Shown: in pieces, positions 236-29,722 of the stretch
How the letters are laid out: every line of letters starts with the position of its first letter
Numbering within the stretch: the stretch's first letter is position 1
Origin: PVC group bacterium
GTDB taxonomy: Bacteria > Verrucomicrobiota > Kiritimatiellia > PWTM01
Reading direction: 5' to 3'
Assembly: GCA_003563855.1 (NCBI GenBank)
Contig: PWTM01000251.1
Coordinates: 1-53,844, forward strand
DNA length: 53,844 bases
Made by a program: the position numbers and the translations under genes
Notes under the pieces: generated by a model
The model's database searches: none
Told to the model about the DNA's origin: nothing
Seen by the model: the letters and a program-made list of their open reading frames with translations, nothing else

Positions 236-321
236 CGCTCATCCGTTTCCCAGTCTTGGAAGCCGTGGTTCGAGCCGGCGATCGAGGGCATCGTCCTCGT
301 CCTCAGCGAGCGAAGCGAGCG

Positions 322-410
322 GTCCTCGTCCTCGTCCTCGTCCTCGTCCGGGAGGATTCCGGGAAGATCGAGAACGAGGACGAAGGACGAGGACGAGGAC
401 GAGGATGGGG
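322..410. repeat. Hexamer-periodic hairpin, (GTCCTC)n arm / (GAGGAC)n arm ending GATGGGG (family H)
   Basis: Left arm GTCCTCGTCCTCGTCCTCGTCCTCGTCC (322-349), ~26-nt loop, right arm GAGGACGAAGGACGAGGACGAGGACGAGGATGGGG (376-410). Lies ~65 nt downstream of the ATPase gene stop. Confidence 0.8.
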
Positions 411-473
411 CACACGACCCCTCGCGCGGGGTTTGCGGTCAGGCCGCCCCCCCCTCCACCCGACACGCGGCGG

Positions 474-7244: not shown

Positions 7245-7390
7245 TTTTCCCCACTTTTCGGCGTGCGGGGGTGATCTCCCGGGCGGCGTGGTGCGGCGGC
7301 CGTGCCGCTCGCGTCCGCGAAGGCCCCCGCCTTCGCCAAGGCTACGGCGGGCAAGCCGTGAGCGGCGTTGCGGCGGCGCGGCGCGGACAC
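7245..7390 (+). repeat. Promoter-proximal repeat, family R2 (copy 1)
   Basis: TTTTCCCCACTTTTCGGCGTGCGGGGGTGATCTCCCGGGCGGCGTGGTGCGGCGGCCGTGCCGCTCGCGTCCGCGAAGGCC...CCGTGAGCGGCGTTGCGGCGGCGCGGCGCGGACAC. Its reverse complement recurs at 16658-16773. This copy carries a ~29-nt insertion. Confidence 0.8.
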
Positions 7391-7408: not shown

Positions 7409-7469
7409 CGTCCTGCTCGTCCTCGTCCTTCGAGAACCGAGGACGAGGACGAGGACGAGGGACGAGGGA
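7409..7469. repeat. Hexamer-periodic hairpin (GTCCTC)/(GAGGAC), family H
   Basis: CGTCCTGCTCGTCCTCGTCC, loop ttcgagaacc, then GAGGACGAGGACGAGGACGAGGGACGAGGGA. The loop-arm junction CGAGAAC-GAGGAC is shared with the copy at 322-410. Confidence 0.8.
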
Positions 7470-7686: not shown

Positions 7687-7717
7687 TTTCAGCGTTTCAG
7701 CATTTCAGCGTTTCAGC
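7687..7717. repeat. Heptamer tandem repeat (TTTCAGCR)x4
   Basis: TTTCAGCGTTTCAGCATTTCAGCGTTTCAGC. An inverted shorter copy, GCTGAAACGCTGAAAGG, lies at 16441-16457. The flanking ACTACGGACCACGAGAGCCTCC also recurs inverted at 16467-16488. Confidence 0.7.
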
Positions 7718-16294: not shown

Positions 16295-16480
16295 GATGCA
16301 CGTCCCCCGCCAACACCCTAGCCGCGCGCCCACCCCCGTGGCGAGGCCAAAGGCGGTCGGCGCGGCGGAGGACCTTCCCCTCTCTTCGCGGCGCGTCCTG
16401 CGGAACGTGCTGGAGTGGGATCGCTTGACATGAGGAAGAAGCTGAAACGCTGAAAGGGGAAGGCCGGAGGCCCTCGTGAT

Positions 16481-16551
16481 CCGTAGTCGTCGGCGTAGTC
16501 GTCCACCGGAAAGGGACGAGCCGGTCGACGACTACGGCTGACGACGGCGAC
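16481..16551. repeat. Hexamer-periodic hairpin (GTAGTC/GACTAC type), family H
   Basis: CCGTAGTCGTCGGCGTAGTCGTC, loop, then GTCGACGACTACGGCTGACGACGGCGAC. Confidence 0.7.
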
Positions 16552-23413: not shown

Positions 23414-23459
23414 CCCATTCTGCGTATTCTGCGTATTCTGTGGTTCCTCCTCCGCCCTC
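23414..23459 (+). repeat. 46-nt repeat CCCATTCTGCGTATTCTGCGTATTCTGTGGTTCCTCCTCCGCCCTC (family R5)
   Basis: Identical 46/46 to 45707-45752. Contains (TTCTGCGTA)x2. Confidence 0.9.
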
Positions 23460-23487
23460 GCCCTCCGGGCTACGGCGGACAGGCTAC

Positions 23488-23543
23488 GCCGACGACTACG
23501 GTTCACGACAGGAGGTCTTCAATCGTCCACCGTAGTCGTCGCC
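23488..23543. repeat. Hairpin GCCGACGACTACGG ... CCGTAGTCGTCGCC (family H)
   Basis: 13/14 complementary arms. The flank AATCGTCCACCG is shared with 7485-7496. Confidence 0.7.
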
Positions 23544-23611
23544 GTCGTCGTCGACCGGAGAGACCCAGGGGCGGAAACCGGCAAAGACCCACACTCGCGG
23601 CCACGGCCCGG

Positions 23612-25148: not shown

Positions 25149-26141
25149 TCACCTCCGGCGTAACGGGTAGAGAACCTGGAACGGAACGCGGATCTCTTCG
25201 CGCCCCTCCACGTCGGTCACGATCCGCAGGTGCTGTCCGTCGAGTTCCGCACGGGGGCGCAGGATGTCGACGCGGACCTGGTAGCCGCGGGGCCCGGCCT
25301 CCTCGACGCTTGCGCGGACGCCCTCGGGTGTCTCGACGCCGAGGATGCGGAACGCGGCGATGCGGCCCGGGCGCACGGAAACGAACCGGGTCACCGCGCC
25401 CCGCTCGCCGGCGGCGAGCACCATCTCCGCGGGCGACACGATGATCGGGTCGAGACGCCGGACCGCCAGCGGTACACGGTGTTCGGCGCCGTCGTCGGTG
25501 ACGATCCGCAGCTCCGCGCGCTGTGTCGCGGCGCCATCGAGCGGCGGGACGGTGCGCACCTGCACGCGGTAGTGGCGGTCCGGCGCGACCTCTTCGACGT
25601 TCACCGCGAAACGGGGCGAGTCGGTCCGCGCGTCCACGACGCGGCCGGGCCGGTCCGGCGCGAACGTGACGTCGACCGCGGCCTCGGCGCGGTCTTCGCT
25701 GTCGCCCGCGTCGAGCGTGAGGGCCGGCGGCTCGATGGCGACGGGCGGCGCGATTTCGCCGCGGAAGCCGAGCCGCAGCTCGGGGTTCGCCGGGTCGTCG
25801 GAGAGCACGAGAATCCAGGCCTCGACCGGGCCGCGCAGGCCGCGCAGCGGGAGGGTGGCCTGCAGCTCCGTCGCTTCGCCCGGTGCAAGGCGCCGGGCGC
25901 CGAGCGCCGTCTCGGCGCCGTCGTAGAGCGCGCGCACGTCGACGATCTCCAGCGGCGCCGCGCCGGCGTTGCGGAGCGCGAACGCGTGGCGGATCCGGCC
26001 GGCGCCCGGCGCCCGGCGGCCGAAGTCCAGCACCGGCGCCTCGCAGACGAGGCGCGGCGCTTCGCCCGGCGCGGCCGCCGCCAGCAGGAGCGCGGCGGCG
26101 CAGGGCGCGAGGCGCTCAGGCCAGCTTCGAGAAACGCGCAT
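25149..26141 (-). CDS. Secreted DUF1573-like / Ig-fold repeat protein
   Basis: 330 aa. Signal peptide, then repeated beta-rich ~100-aa modules. The first resembles DUF1573 (VLDFGRR....FALRNAGAAPLEI). Overlaps the rhaB 3' end by 26 nt. Confidence 0.55.
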   Translation of the reverse strand: MRVSRSWPERLAPCAAALLLAAAAPGEAPRLVCEAPVLDFGRRAPGAGRIRHAFALRNAGAAPLEIVDVRALYDGAETALGARRLAPGEATELQATLPLRGLRGPVEAWILVLSDDPANPELRLGFRGEIAPPVAIEPPALTLDAGDSEDRAEAAVDVTFAPDRPGRVVDARTDSPRFAVNVEEVAPDRHYRVQVRTVPPLDGAATQRAELRIVTDDGAEHRVPLAVRRLDPIIVSPAEMVLAAGERGAVTRFVSVRPGRIAAFRILGVETPEGVRASVEEAGPRGYQVRVDILRPRAELDGQHLRIVTDVEGREEIRVPFQVLYPLRRR

Positions 26142-27606
26142 AGGCTTCGGCCCAGGCGGACTCGTCGCGCGGCTCGAAGACGCGGCGCTCGAAGGAGCGC
26201 GCCACGAGCGCGCGGCCCTCGGCGAGCGACCGGATCCGGCGGCGCGCGAGCAGTTGCATGAGGATATTGCCGGCCGCCGTCGCCTCGACAGGGCCGGCGA
26301 CGACCGGCCGGCCGATGGCGTCCGCGGTGAACTGGTTGAGCAGCGCGTTGCGCGACCCGCCGCCGACGATGTGCAGCGTCTCGATGCGTCCGCCGTGAAA
26401 CGCCTCGAGCTGGTCGAAGACGCGGCGGTAGGCGAGGGCGAGGCTTTCGAACACGACCCGCGCGATGTCGCCGCGCTCCCCGGGCGGACGCTGCCCCGTG
26501 CGGCGGCACCAGGCGCGGATGCGCTCGGGCATGCGGCCCGGCGCGAGGAACGCGGAGTCCAACGGATCGATCGCGGCCTGGAACGGCGCGGCCTTCGACG
26601 CCAGGCGGGTGATCCGGTCGTAGGACAGCTCGGTCCCGCCGTCCTCGACCTGCCAGGCGCGGCGGCATTCCTGGAGGATCCAGAGCCCCATGATGTTCTT
26701 CAGCAGCCGGTTGGTCCCGCAGACGCCGCCCTCGTTGGTCATGTTGGAGGCGAGCGTGCGCTGGTCGATGCGCGGGCGGTCCGTCTCGATGCCCATCAGC
26801 GACCAGGTGCCGGAGCTCAGGTAGGCGAACGGCCCGGCGGCGGCATCGGCCGGGACCGCGGCGACGGCGGACGCGGTGTCGTGGGAGCCGGGCGCGACGA
26901 CGGCGCAGCGCGCGAGGCCGGTTTCGTCGGCGACGCCCGGGCGGAGCGCGCCCAGCTTCGTCCCGGCCTCGACGACCTCGGCGAAGAGCCCCGCGGGGAT
27001 GCCCAGCTCGCGCAGCAGGGCGCGGGCCGGCGCCTTCCGCCGCGGATCGAAGCACTGGCTCGTGCTGGCGATCGTCCACTCGTTGCAGCGGCGGCCGGTC
27101 AGCCAGTAGTGAAAGAGGTCGGGCATGAAGAGCAGCGTACGCGCCGCATCCAGCTCGGGCGCGCGGGCCCGGGCCAGCGCGAGAAGCTGGTAGAGCGTGT
27201 TGATCTCCATGAACTGGAGGCCGGTCCGGCGGTAGATGCGTTCGCGGCGGGCCTTCCGGAAGGCCCGCTCGAGCATCCCGGCGGTGCGCCCGTCGCGGTA
27301 GTGAACCGGGTTGGCCAGCAGCGCGCCGCGCCGGTCGAGCAGGCCGAAGTCCACCCCCCAGGTGTCGACGCCGAGGCTGACCACGCGGCGGCCGTGCGCC
27401 CGGGCGGCGCGCGCGAGTCCGGCGGTCATTTCCCGGTAGAGCCGGAGCGCATCCCAATGCAGCGCGTCGGGCAGCGCGACCGGCTCGTTCGGGAACCGGT
27501 GCGCTTCCTCGAGCCGCAGGTGCTTGCCGTCGAAAAGCCCGGCCATCACCCGCCCGCTCTCCGCTCCGAAATCGGCCGCCAGGTACACTTCGCTGCGATC
27601 TGCCAT
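26116..27606 (-). CDS. rhaB: Rhamnulokinase (FGGY family)
   Basis: 496 aa from MADRSEVYLAADFGAESGR. FGGY sugar kinase motifs (DTWGVDFGLL, GSHDTASA, HIVGGGSRN). The 926-aa ORF in the track is an over-extension through repeat DNA. Confidence 0.88.
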   Translation of the reverse strand: MADRSEVYLAADFGAESGRVMAGLFDGKHLRLEEAHRFPNEPVALPDALHWDALRLYREMTAGLARAARAHGRRVVSLGVDTWGVDFGLLDRRGALLANPVHYRDGRTAGMLERAFRKARRERIYRRTGLQFMEINTLYQLLALARARAPELDAARTLLFMPDLFHYWLTGRRCNEWTIASTSQCFDPRRKAPARALLRELGIPAGLFAEVVEAGTKLGALRPGVADETGLARCAVVAPGSHDTASAVAAVPADAAAGPFAYLSSGTWSLMGIETDRPRIDQRTLASNMTNEGGVCGTNRLLKNIMGLWILQECRRAWQVEDGGTELSYDRITRLASKAAPFQAAIDPLDSAFLAPGRMPERIRAWCRRTGQRPPGERGDIARVVFESLALAYRRVFDQLEAFHGGRIETLHIVGGGSRNALLNQFTADAIGRPVVAGPVEATAAGNILMQLLARRRIRSLAEGRALVARSFERRVFEPRDESAWAEAYARFSKLA

Positions 27607-27637
27607 GGTCCCGTCCTCCGTGCTGCGATGCGGAGTC

Positions 27638-27666
27638 AGTCTACCGCACCCGCCCGCCGCCGGGAA
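27638..27666 (-). promoter_or_regulatory. Possible promoter of rhaB: TTCCCG-N17-TAGACT
   Basis: Good -10 and weak -35. A GGAGGA RBS lies 7 nt before the ATG. Confidence 0.35.
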
Positions 27667-27762
27667 GCCTGCCGGGAAGACAGGATCGCGGCGCGGCGGA
27701 GAAGGCGCGCGGTGCGGAAGATGAGGGCGGAACCGCGAATGGACGCGAATGGATGGGGGAAA

Positions 27763-27907
27763 GACAACGATTTCGACAACGATCGCGACAATGATGGGGA
27801 GCCGGGAATCCTTGTCGAGATCATTGTCGAAGAGCGGATGGAGTCGAAGCAGGCGCGAGGGGGGCCGAAGACAACGATTTCGACAATGATCCCGACAACG
27901 ATGGGGA
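27763..27907. repeat. Two (GAC-AAC-GAT-NNN)n arms ending GATGGGGA plus an intervening complementary arm (family H)
   Basis: GACAACGATTTCGACAACGATCGCGACAATGATGGGGA (27763-27800). Left arm CTTGTCGAGATCATTGTCGAAG (27811-27832). GACAACGATTTCGACAATGATCCCGACAACGATGGGGA (27870-27907). Confidence 0.8.
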
Positions 27908-27916
27908 GCGCATCTC

Positions 27917-27989
27917 CTGCTCGTCCTCGTCGTCGTCCTCGTCCTCGATCTCGATCTTCTCCGGGCTCTTCCCGATCGAGGACGAGGAC
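27917..27989. repeat. Hexamer-periodic hairpin (GTCCTC)/(GAGGAC), family H
   Basis: Perfect 16-bp stem: GTCCTCGTCCTCGATC ... GATCGAGGACGAGGAC, with a 23-nt loop. Confidence 0.85.
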
Positions 27990-28070
27990 TGGGCAGGACC
28001 GCGACGGCCGGCGCCGTAGGGGCGGCCCCCCGTGGCCGCCCGAAGGACGGCGGGGGGCGAGGGGCAGGGA

Positions 28071-28303
28071 GACGGCGCAAGCCTCGTAGTCCTAGTCGTA
28101 GTCGCAATCGTAGTCGGGGTGGCGCGGAGGCTGGGGGGGAGGAGTCGAAGACTACGATTGGGACTAGGACTGCGACTACGATGAGGGGACGGCGCAAGCC
28201 TCGTAGTCGCAATCGTAGTCGCAATCCTAGTCGGGATGGCGCGGAGACGGGTAGGGAGAGGCGAGGACTACGATTGGGACTAGGACTGCGACTACGATGG
28301 GGA
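28071..28303. repeat. Tandem duplication (2 x ~117 bp) of a GTAGTC/GACTAC hairpin unit, family H
   Basis: Unit 1 is 28071-28189 and unit 2 is 28188-28303. Each reads GACGGCGCAAGCCT, a CGTAGTC...-type left arm, loop, then GACTACGATTGGGACTAGGACTGCGACTACGATG(A)GGGGA. The array ends 36 nt from the MATE stop. Confidence 0.85.
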
Positions 28304-28339
28304 GGCGTCCGGTCACCGTTAGCGCATCCAGCAACCGGC

Positions 28340-29722
28340 TCAGACCTCCCGCCGCTGCCAGCGGCCGGTTTCGAACCAGGCGGTGACGAGCACCGCGTGT
28401 ACGGCGATGGCGAGGACCATGGCCCACCAGATGCCGTCGAGCCGCCCGTCGGGACCGCGCGAGGCGAACACGGCAAGCGGGAGCTGCACGCCCCAGAGGC
28501 TGATGACGGTGGCGACCATCGGCCAGAACGTGTCGCCCGCGCCCTGCAGACTGCGGCCGAGGATAATGGCGGGGGCGGCGAGCAGGTACGAAGGCGCGAC
28601 GATGCGCAGCAGCCGCACGCCGATGCGGATGACCTCGGGATCGTCGTTGAAGACGCCGATGACGGCCGGCGCATAGACGACGACGCCGAGCGCGGCCACG
28701 GCGATGAACGCCGCATCGTAGCCGGTCGCCAGCCAGGCGGCGCGGCGCGCGCGCCTGGGCCGGCCGGCCCCGAGGCACTGGCCGACGATCGTCGCCGACG
28801 CCGCGCCGAGCACGAAGGCGGGCATGAGGAAGACCATGAAGCAGCGCCAGGCCGTCCCGTAGGCGGCCACGGCCGCCGTGCCGAAACCGGCGACAAGCCG
28901 CATAAGGACCAGCGAGACGAGGCTGCGCGCGAGCATCTGGCCGGAGCCCGGAAGGCCGATGCGGACGATGCGCCCGAGCTGCCGGGCGTCCGGCCGCCAG
29001 AGGCGCGCGCGGAGCCGGACCCGCGCGCGGCGCCGGTGCAGGTGCGCCACTAGGCCGATCGCGGCTACGGCCTGGGCCAGCACGGTCGCCCACGCCGCGC
29101 CGCGCACGCCCAGCTCCGGGAACGGGCCGATGCCGAAGATCAGCAGCGGGTCCAGCCCTATGTTGAGCACGGCGGCCGTGGCCATGAAGGCCATCGGCCG
29201 GACCGTGTCGCCCGCCCCCTGAAGCGCCGCGTTCCCGACGAAGAGCAGGTTCATCGTGAAGCTGCCGGCCAGCAGGATGCGCAGGTAGTGCCCGCCCTCG
29301 TCCGCGACCTCGGGCGCGGCGTCGAGCAGGACCAGCACGCTGCGCGAGAAGACCGCGCCGATGCCGGCCGTGACCGCGCCCACGAGCAGGGCGAGCAGGA
29401 GCGACTGGCCGGCGACGCGGCCCGCTTCCCACGGGCGTCCGGCGCCGACCGAGCGGGCGACGAGCGCGATCGTCCCGGCGGAGAGCCCCATGATCGCGGG
29501 GAAGACCATCATCATCACGGCCCCGCCCATCGCGACGGCGGCCAGCGCGGCGGGTCCGAGCCGGCCCACCCAGAAGAGGTCGATCACGCTCTGCGCGTTC
29601 TGCAGCAGCGCGCTGACGAGCATCGGCCAGGCCAGCCCCAAGATGGCGGGCCCGAGGGGTCCGTCGATCAGCGGCCGGCCGGCCTCGGGCGACGGCCGGT
29701 CAGAGCTCGACGTAGAAGCCAA
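28340..29722 (-). CDS. MATE family efflux transporter
   Basis: 460 aa, 12 TM. N-terminus ILGLAWPMLVSALLQNAQSVIDLFWVGRLG is typical of MATE. Only an in-frame TTG start is available (29722), and it overlaps the serA 3' end by 23 nt. Confidence 0.88.
   Translation of the reverse strand: MASTSSSDRPSPEAGRPLIDGPLGPAILGLAWPMLVSALLQNAQSVIDLFWVGRLGPAALAAVAMGGAVMMMVFPAIMGLSAGTIALVARSVGAGRPWEAGRVAGQSLLLALLVGAVTAGIGAVFSRSVLVLLDAAPEVADEGGHYLRILLAGSFTMNLLFVGNAALQGAGDTVRPMAFMATAAVLNIGLDPLLIFGIGPFPELGVRGAAWATVLAQAVAAIGLVAHLHRRRARVRLRARLWRPDARQLGRIVRIGLPGSGQMLARSLVSLVLMRLVAGFGTAAVAAYGTAWRCFMVFLMPAFVLGAASATIVGQCLGAGRPRRARRAAWLATGYDAAFIAVAALGVVVYAPAVIGVFNDDPEVIRIGVRLLRIVAPSYLLAAPAIILGRSLQGAGDTFWPMVATVISLWGVQLPLAVFASRGPDGRLDGIWWAMVLAIAVHAVLVTAWFETGRWQRREV

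Follow-up and report, generated by a model that had tools for sequence, protein, structure and literature searches.

Periodic hairpins between rhaB and a MATE gene

Contig PWTM01000251.1 of a PVC group bacterium (53,844 nt, 72% G+C), the whole of which is termed here the window, is a sequence present in soda- and salt-lake metagenomes. Between an FGGY kinase gene whose homologues are named rhamnulokinase (rhaB) and a MATE gene it carries a spacer of 733 nt (27607-28339; 730 bp according to an earlier note on this DNA), which is internal to a co-directional pair since both genes lie on the minus strand. The spacer contains four right arms, three matching left arms, one inverted GTCCTC hairpin and one GTAG-tagged hairpin resembling repetitive extragenic palindromic (REP) sequences (Table 1). 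The earlier note had described five consecutive hairpin units; structured units do fill the spacer, but no left arm belongs to unit 1, unit 3 is inverted and the REP-like hairpin comes in addition. Unit 3 is considered inverted because, once reverse-complemented, it can be aligned with the unit at 319-413 through the loop as well. Loci from metagenomes and contigs used for comparison, 250 in all, are numbered L###.

Right arms of the form (GAYNNN)5GATG begin at 27763, 27870, 28150 and 28266 (4 observed versus 0.00 expected, 100 shuffles). The terminus thought to be kept in all units occurs as GATGGGGA at 27793, 27900 and 28296 and as GATGAGGGGA at 28180, but unit 3 ends without GATGGGGA. A complementary left arm had likewise been assigned to each unit: those at 27808-27831, 28084-28115 and 28201-28232 are 88-92% complementary to their own right arms, whereas the best upstream complement of the unit 1 arm reaches 9/18. 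Each left arm can pair as readily with the right arm before it (27758-27836; 28146-28236) as with the one after it. Units measure 75-117 nt, with arms of 16-32 nt and loops of 23-47 nt. All units fold far better than shuffled sequences as RNA, on both strands (z -2.4 to -7.9), and the hairpins also do so as single-stranded DNA (z -2.4 to -6.7), so that both of the foldings proposed in the earlier note exceed those of shuffles.

GAY recurs every 6 nt in the arms as previously described, but the strict period is not 6: Tandem Repeats Finder returns a period of 12 (GACWACGATNNN; GACAACGATCGC, GACTACGACTGC), the 12-nt word being GACWAC-GATNNN and GATGGG the second half of the last 12-mer. The grammar of the repeat is NNN-RTC in the left arm and GAY-NNN in the right arm, realized here by the word GACWAC-GATNNN, and in this subfamily a conserved tail, GATGGG(G)AG..CCGG, comes after the right arm. 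The statement that arm sequences differ completely between units could not be upheld, as the GACAAC and GACTAC right arms agree at 28/38 positions (74%). What sets them apart is chiefly an A/T exchange at base four of the GACWAC words, mirrored in the left arms by GTTGTC versus GTAGTC. The arms are related variants drawn from a small hexamer vocabulary. Units 4 and 5 show the spacing of the reported tandem duplication (116-117 nt), although the copies are just 85-86% identical. Single mismatches recur in the stems at constant places of the hexamer; most are C.C, G.G or T.T instead of wobble pairs, and so there is no indication of selection on one RNA strand.

The view that no known family explains the units is borne out by Rfam: in a scan of 27000-29000 the best hit was mir-5881 (20.8 bits versus a gathering score of 87), and there were just sub-threshold microRNA look-alikes and no rRNA match. 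A coding reading of the arms in the window as Asp-X repeats was considered and rejected, as the GACTAC arm holds an in-frame TAG and the reading would call for rare A-ending codons despite 72% GC. Ahead of unit 1 lies a purine-rich stretch (27680-27762, ..GAATGGACGCGAATGGATGGGGGAAA) that is similar to the loops of the remaining units and has a raised metagenome depth of ~138; possibly it is the loop left over from a unit whose left arm was lost. The hairpin at ~28012-28045 has the appearance of a canonical REP from the GTAG super-family.

Table 1. Hairpin units, further copies and bordering genes in the window.
Feature	Position	Strand	Description
Unit 1	27763..27800	+	right arm of GACAAC type ending in GATGGGGA; pairs with 27808-27831 over a 12-nt loop
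Unit 2	27808..27907	+	left arm 27808-27831, purine-rich loop, right arm 27879-27902 (92% complementary), GATGGGGA 27900-27907
Unit 3	27917..27989	-	GTCCTC/GAGGAC hairpin, inverted relative to the others, without GATGGGGA end
REP-like hairpin	~28012-28045	+	between units 3 and 4; GTAG-tagged, GC-rich, GTAGGGGCGGCC CCCCGT GGCCGCCC; different repeat family
Unit 4	28072..28189	+	ACGGCGCAAGCC, left arm 28084-28115, G-rich loop, right arm 28150-28181 (GACTAC type), GATGAGGGGA 28180-28189
Unit 5	28189..28303	+	left arm 28201-28232, right arm 28266-28297, GATGGGGA 28296-28303; tandem copy of unit 4
GTCCTC/GAGGAC hairpin	319..413	+	end GAGGATGGGGC; 83% identical to L202 1539-1607
GTCCTC/GAGGAC hairpin	7410..7469	+	further copy, short loop
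GACGACTACGG-type hairpin	16481..16551	not assigned	12-nt period
GACGACTACGG-type hairpin	23484..23557	+	83% identical over 75 nt to L162 hairpins
FGGY kinase gene	26116-27606	minus	homologues named rhamnulokinase; its start borders the spacer
MatE gene	28340-29722	minus	PF01554; its stop borders the spacer

A dispersed family with covarying arms

Every copy of the hairpins in the window is intergenic, and the gaps that they occupy are co-directional, convergent and divergent, with copies in both orientations. When contigs of four soda- or salt-lake metagenomes containing the organism are summed at 85% likeness, the unique flanks reach a depth of 11-12, the GACAAC units (27770-27910) 400-600 and the GACTAC unit (28146-28239) 450-500, i.e. 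~35-50x the flanks for the units, this depth being summed over all organisms in the sample and hence a proxy, not a copy number. The REP-like hairpin at 28012-28045 reaches a contig depth of ~510 versus ~11 in its flanks. Metagenome contigs end at the repeats.

Related hairpins were found in other organisms. Among the matches listed for a contig scan with (GAYNNN)5GATGGGG, most were Asp-rich coding repeats (Myxococcota and others) and only L034 and L095 were informative; none of the listed matches came from the genome of the window. An arm-only metagenome scan, whose pattern did not demand the GATGGG(G)A(G) tail, listed at least ~25 long non-coding hairpins on contigs of 55-74% G+C, with left arms complementary at 23-31/32 positions, and another group of coding repeats without an upstream complement (12-19/32). 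Members of the 12-nt-period subgroup have GATGGGAG, GATGGGAA or GATGGAAG after the right arm (L126, L148, L176, L177, L202 and L230), and at least six other metagenomes hold related hairpins ending in GATGGGAG/GATGGGGA. CCGG often lies a few bases past this tail, as it does in the window (GATGGGGAGCCGGG, GATGGGGAGGCGTCCGG). The termini are asymmetric because the 5' side reads GGGTTCAGGGTTCAGATC versus GATGGGAG on the 3' side (L126, L162, L202). Arm length varies widely between copies, and the right arm far outruns the left in L181 and L217.

Ten terminus-bearing hairpins from 8 sources could be placed in register, and 91.9% of their cells pair. The compensatory-change test proposed in the earlier note detected changes on both sides in 6/21 pairs and a covariation score of 0.221 versus 0.101 after shuffling, a value reached by 0/500 shuffles, in a design where the left arm was the best complement and was joined by a synthetic loop, which leans towards pairing. 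Slid structures collapsed in the same test. As the earlier note had supposed, the units belong to a structured repeat family and are not the product of ordinary duplication. The arms stay complementary through two-sided changes. It is to be noted that concerted change at the DNA level would equally explain this arm "compensation".

In L034 (2480-2637, minus strand, Verrucomicrobiota metagenome-assembled genome JBJOII010000009.1) a non-coding unit of 121 nt, present in tandem, terminates in (GATNNN)5GATGGGGC and has no complementary left arm, showing that the periodic arm and its tail can occur without a hairpin. Heptamer direct arrays directly adjoin hexamer hairpins both in the window (TTTCAGC, 7687-7717 and 16441-16457) and in L126, L162 and L202 (CTGAACC); heptamer and hexamer short-period arrays seem to travel together. 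Another shared repeat (..CTTCGCC..GGCTACGGCG.GACAGG.TA.C..) is found in the window at 23450-23490 and 7320-7360, in the upstream hairpin loop of L250 and in L202 at 1430-1500. As this repeat is common to the window and to loci with double PF05635 genes (see below), these organisms share a suite of intergenic repeat families.

Hexamer-periodic stems enclose PF05635 genes

Six of the loci fetched by DNA pattern alone carry a gene of family PF05635 ("23S rRNA intervening-sequence protein", an Avd-like four-helix bundle), as identified by Pfam in L162, L231, L193, L180 and L095 and by a hidden Markov model (HMM) in L037. Hexamer arrays flank the gene on both sides or adjoin it in 5/6 of them; in L037 there is none within 300 nt of the gene. 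The PF05635 gene of L193 is placed between GTTGTC and GACAAC arms, with a solo hairpin bearing the same arms 200 nt away. The L162 gene is preceded at ~90 nt by a GACAAC-GATNNN hairpin with a GATGTGAGCCGG tail, and the window hairpin at 23484-23557 matches, loop included, the hairpins on both sides of this locus's double PF05635 gene. A second double PF05635 gene, flanked like that of L162, is present in L250, and both loci also carry decayed PF05635 3' ends followed by a hairpin. These decayed gene ends with their hairpins indicate that a gene-plus-hairpin module is repeated and decays towards solo hairpins. In L095 ("bacterium Ust_16", JAAESQ010001524.1) the PF05635 gene is followed by a (NNNCTG)n/(CAGNNN)n hairpin and then by an (ATCGTC)/(GACGAT) hairpin ending in GAGGATGGGGTGA, so that the period of six bases persists around a constant trinucleotide of quite another kind.

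The association was also observed starting from the gene. A search with the L231 protein gave 2,978 homologues, and all seven gene-first loci that were fetched (L241-L243, L246-L249) proved to be enclosed by complementary hexamer arrays. The hexamer differs between these loci (GTGCAC/GTCCAC, GATCAA/GATCAC, GTGAAC/GTTCAC, GTGGAC/GTCCAC); all seven keep the ACG/CGT phase. PF05635 genes inside such stems are found in L193, L231, L241-L243 and L246-L249, and the constant trinucleotide varies among loci between GAC, CAG and ACG. No transposase was seen inside any hairpin of the 250 loci, the only cargo being PF05635; an ISL3 gene stands beside the PF05635 cassette of L243, not inside it.

The PF05635 open reading frame (ORF) of L193, L180 and L242 continues into the right arm in the GAY-NNN frame, which yields tails such as DDDYDNDNDNE. 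Among the homologues listed (P0001-P0120, P0241-P0360), the majority come from contigs of just 0.5-3 kb, and the gene calls for many of them include N- or C-terminal extensions such as VDVDVDVD, VHVNVN, RARSRARS or DQDQDQD. These extensions are translated flanking arrays, which means that the elements break assemblies and mislead gene callers.

The rhaB locus of the nearest relatives is devoid of hairpins

The two closest RhaB relatives (L244 and L245) are 67% identical, and in both of them rhaB is followed by a DUF1573 gene, as in the window. The 21 kb and 13 kb available for these relatives contain no periodic hairpins, while the same scan finds several in the window, and their regions upstream of rhaB are short and hairpin-free. 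The hairpins therefore do not represent conserved rhaB regulators. Each of the three organisms has a different gene upstream of rhaB, indicating that the MATE-rhaB junction is lineage-specific. At just 67% identity and with another upstream gene, the relatives offer no orthologous empty site for comparison. In a multi-locus check of P0318, all places shown were one locus in different samples.

Discussion

On balance we lean, without great confidence, towards the reading that the spacer units are gene-less, probably selfish, IVS-like copies (IVS, intervening sequence) of a dispersed multi-copy non-coding palindromic repeat. According to this reading, selfish or neutral elements would have accumulated in the intergenic DNA of the lineage with no specific role for rhaB or the MATE gene. 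The stem grammar of the units is that of the long stems that enclose PF05635 genes in many bacteria, and the units would be gene-less members of this design class. By analogy, gene-less copies may stand to gene-carrying forms as do ORF-less rRNA intervening sequences or miniature inverted-repeat transposable elements (MITEs). The arms would change through slippage, gain, loss or shuffling of hexamer words, and could be kept matched by copying between arms (quasi-palindrome template switching), by selection on pairing, or by both. If transcribed, the imperfect stems would be expected to be RNase III substrates, as are those of rRNA intervening sequences.

Several observations weigh against this interpretation. 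Neither a target-site duplication nor an empty site nor a presence/absence polymorphism was found, and mobility thus stays putative. A search of the window with an HMM made from 120 homologues gave no PF05635 ORF or remnant (best E = 3.5). The hairpins flanking PF05635 genes have their direct homologue in the GACGACTACGG family (23484-23557), and it is only by shared grammar and co-occurrence that the GACAAC and GACTAC units are tied to PF05635. To this are added the composite nature of the depth signal, the inclination of the covariation design towards pairing, and the fact that the sole metatranscriptome of these samples barely contains the organism.

A wider proposal, possible in our opinion and yet doubtful, is that hexamer stems and PF05635 genes form one class of mobile hairpins distributed over many phyla, in which rRNA IVSs would be copies landed in rRNA, solo hairpins would be gene-less derivatives and a ring-shaped Avd-like protein would read the words of the arms. 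Since Avd relatives work with reverse transcriptases, such an element might spread via an RNA intermediate.

Among the alternatives, it is in our view unlikely that the hairpins serve the host as RNA in the MATE-rhaB transcript and at other operon borders, as RNase III sites, 3'-end stabilisers or insulators. The strong folds on both strands would suit such a function, and so would the choice of two partners open to each left arm (27758-27836 or 27808-27907; 28146-28236 or 28201-28303), alternative pairings that might act as a switch. Stems of a similar kind in rRNA intervening sequences are RNase III targets. In 6/9 cassettes the stem around the PF05635 gene has a slight stability advantage in the gene's sense strand, a proportion that is not significant. 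The absence of hairpins at rhaB in the nearest relatives, the presence of copies in gaps of every gene arrangement and in both orientations, and the prevalence of C.C, G.G and T.T mismatches over wobble pairs all speak against a host function in RNA, which is nevertheless compatible with a selfish origin. We consider it improbable that the units are unusual REPs or bacterial interspersed mosaic elements (BIMEs), that is, single-stranded DNA hairpins moved by a REP-associated tyrosine transposase (RAYT, TnpA-REP), with TCCCCATC, the complement of GATGGGGA, as 5' tag and the alternating arms as a BIME-like array. Their extragenic, high-copy and alternately clustered occurrence, a conserved unpaired tag at one end only and termini that are asymmetric and not inverted (GGGTTCAGGGTTCAGATC 5' versus GATGGGAG 3' in L126, L162 and L202) agree with it, as do the canonical GTAG-tagged hairpin in the same spacer, the GTAG in every second hexamer of the GACTAC-type left arms and the reported richness in GTAG-REPs of Opitutus terrae, a member of the Verrucomicrobia (PMC3733652). 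Against it, the unit, arm and loop lengths and the tag all depart from the REP definition, the GACAAC and GTCCTC types have no GTAG, and no ORF of the size of a tyrosine transposase stood out in the window's list of ORFs filtered by G+C content at third codon positions, a list without Pfam scan.

Very little credence is given to classical MITEs, i.e. DDE transposon copies with internal deletions, the terminal inverted repeats of which would be hexamer microsatellites. The copies are of a suitable size, non-coding, dispersed and variable in arm length (L181, L217), but units 2, 4 and 5 show no target-site duplication, the GGGGAG found after each right arm not being one because it is part of the unit. 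The asymmetric termini argue in the same direction, and no matching transposase was found, the ISL3 gene near L243 being located outside the PF05635 cassette. Hardly any credence is left for the idea that the periodic GAC/GAT words are primarily a binding array, with one word per 6 or 12 bases for, e.g., a ring-shaped RNA- or DNA-binding protein, and that the hairpin is secondary. In its favour, the trinucleotide is invariant next to changing neighbours, the L034 unit has the periodic arm without its complement, and PF05635 proteins form pentameric rings while Avd relatives bind nucleic acid (PMC10053308). However, complementarity and covariation show that pairing matters, and the constant trinucleotide itself differs between loci (GAC, CAG, ACG).

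No description of six-base-periodic hairpin arms was found in the searchable literature: searches for hexanucleotide stem-loops gave REP and MITE papers only and searches by arm sequence gave primers only. We therefore rate the units, in kind, as small palindromic intergenic repeats or IVS-like elements, in a variant for which no description was found. Where rRNA intervening sequences come from, whether they move and what the widespread free-standing PF05635 genes do are questions that have stood since the 1990s. If the six-base-periodic stem is a signature of these elements, then binding of the protein to the arms, cutting by RNase III and movement of copies become testable. From a practical point of view, the repeats break short-read assemblies, create spurious ORFs (VDVDVD, RARSRA) and inflate the intergenic spacers of the PVC group.

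Comparison with known systems

ORF-less rRNA IVSs are ~100 nt long and have a short loop. The units of the window resemble the rRNA IVSs of Leptospira, Coxiella and Salmonella in having complementary ends that form a long imperfect stem, around a loop that is short or holds a PF05635 gene, as well as in their sporadic distribution and suspected selfish or mobile origin; moreover, the same protein family is found within the hexamer-periodic stems of the fetched loci. In Coxiella, a 28-bp stem of terminal inverted repeats surrounds an S23p ORF and is cut by RNase III in mid-stem, and mobility has been hypothesised only (PMC4990558). Unlike rRNA IVSs, the copies of the window lie between protein-coding genes and not in helix 25 or 45 of 23S rRNA, their arms are composed of serial six-base words whose mismatches fall on set positions of the hexamer, and they are chained, high-copy and gene-less.

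REPs are defined as sequences of 20-40 bp with stems of 8-9 bp, loops of 4-5 nt and a GTAG or CGTC tag (PMC3733652). The units share with REPs and BIMEs an extragenic location, abundance, alternate clustering, a one-sided unpaired tag and asymmetric termini. They are three to five times longer, their loops are long and purine-rich, their arms follow a periodic grammar and their tag is TCCCCATC/GATGGGGA instead of GTAG/CGTC, GTAG as a tag being carried only by the separate hairpin at ~28012-28045. No link to a RAYT was found in the ORF list of the window. Prokaryotic MITEs and Rickettsia palindromic elements (RPE) are likewise small non-coding palindromes of variable arm length that spread in a lineage; the units of the window differ from them in lacking a target-site duplication or a matching transposase, and in that each whole unit is one hairpin made of short-period arrays. 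Intergenic arrays of direct heptamers of the TAACTGA type, reportedly described by MacGregor in 2015, are similar as short-period simple-sequence arrays filling gaps in several phyla, but they consist of direct 7-mers without a complementary arm, whereas the units described here pair their periodic words into hairpins.

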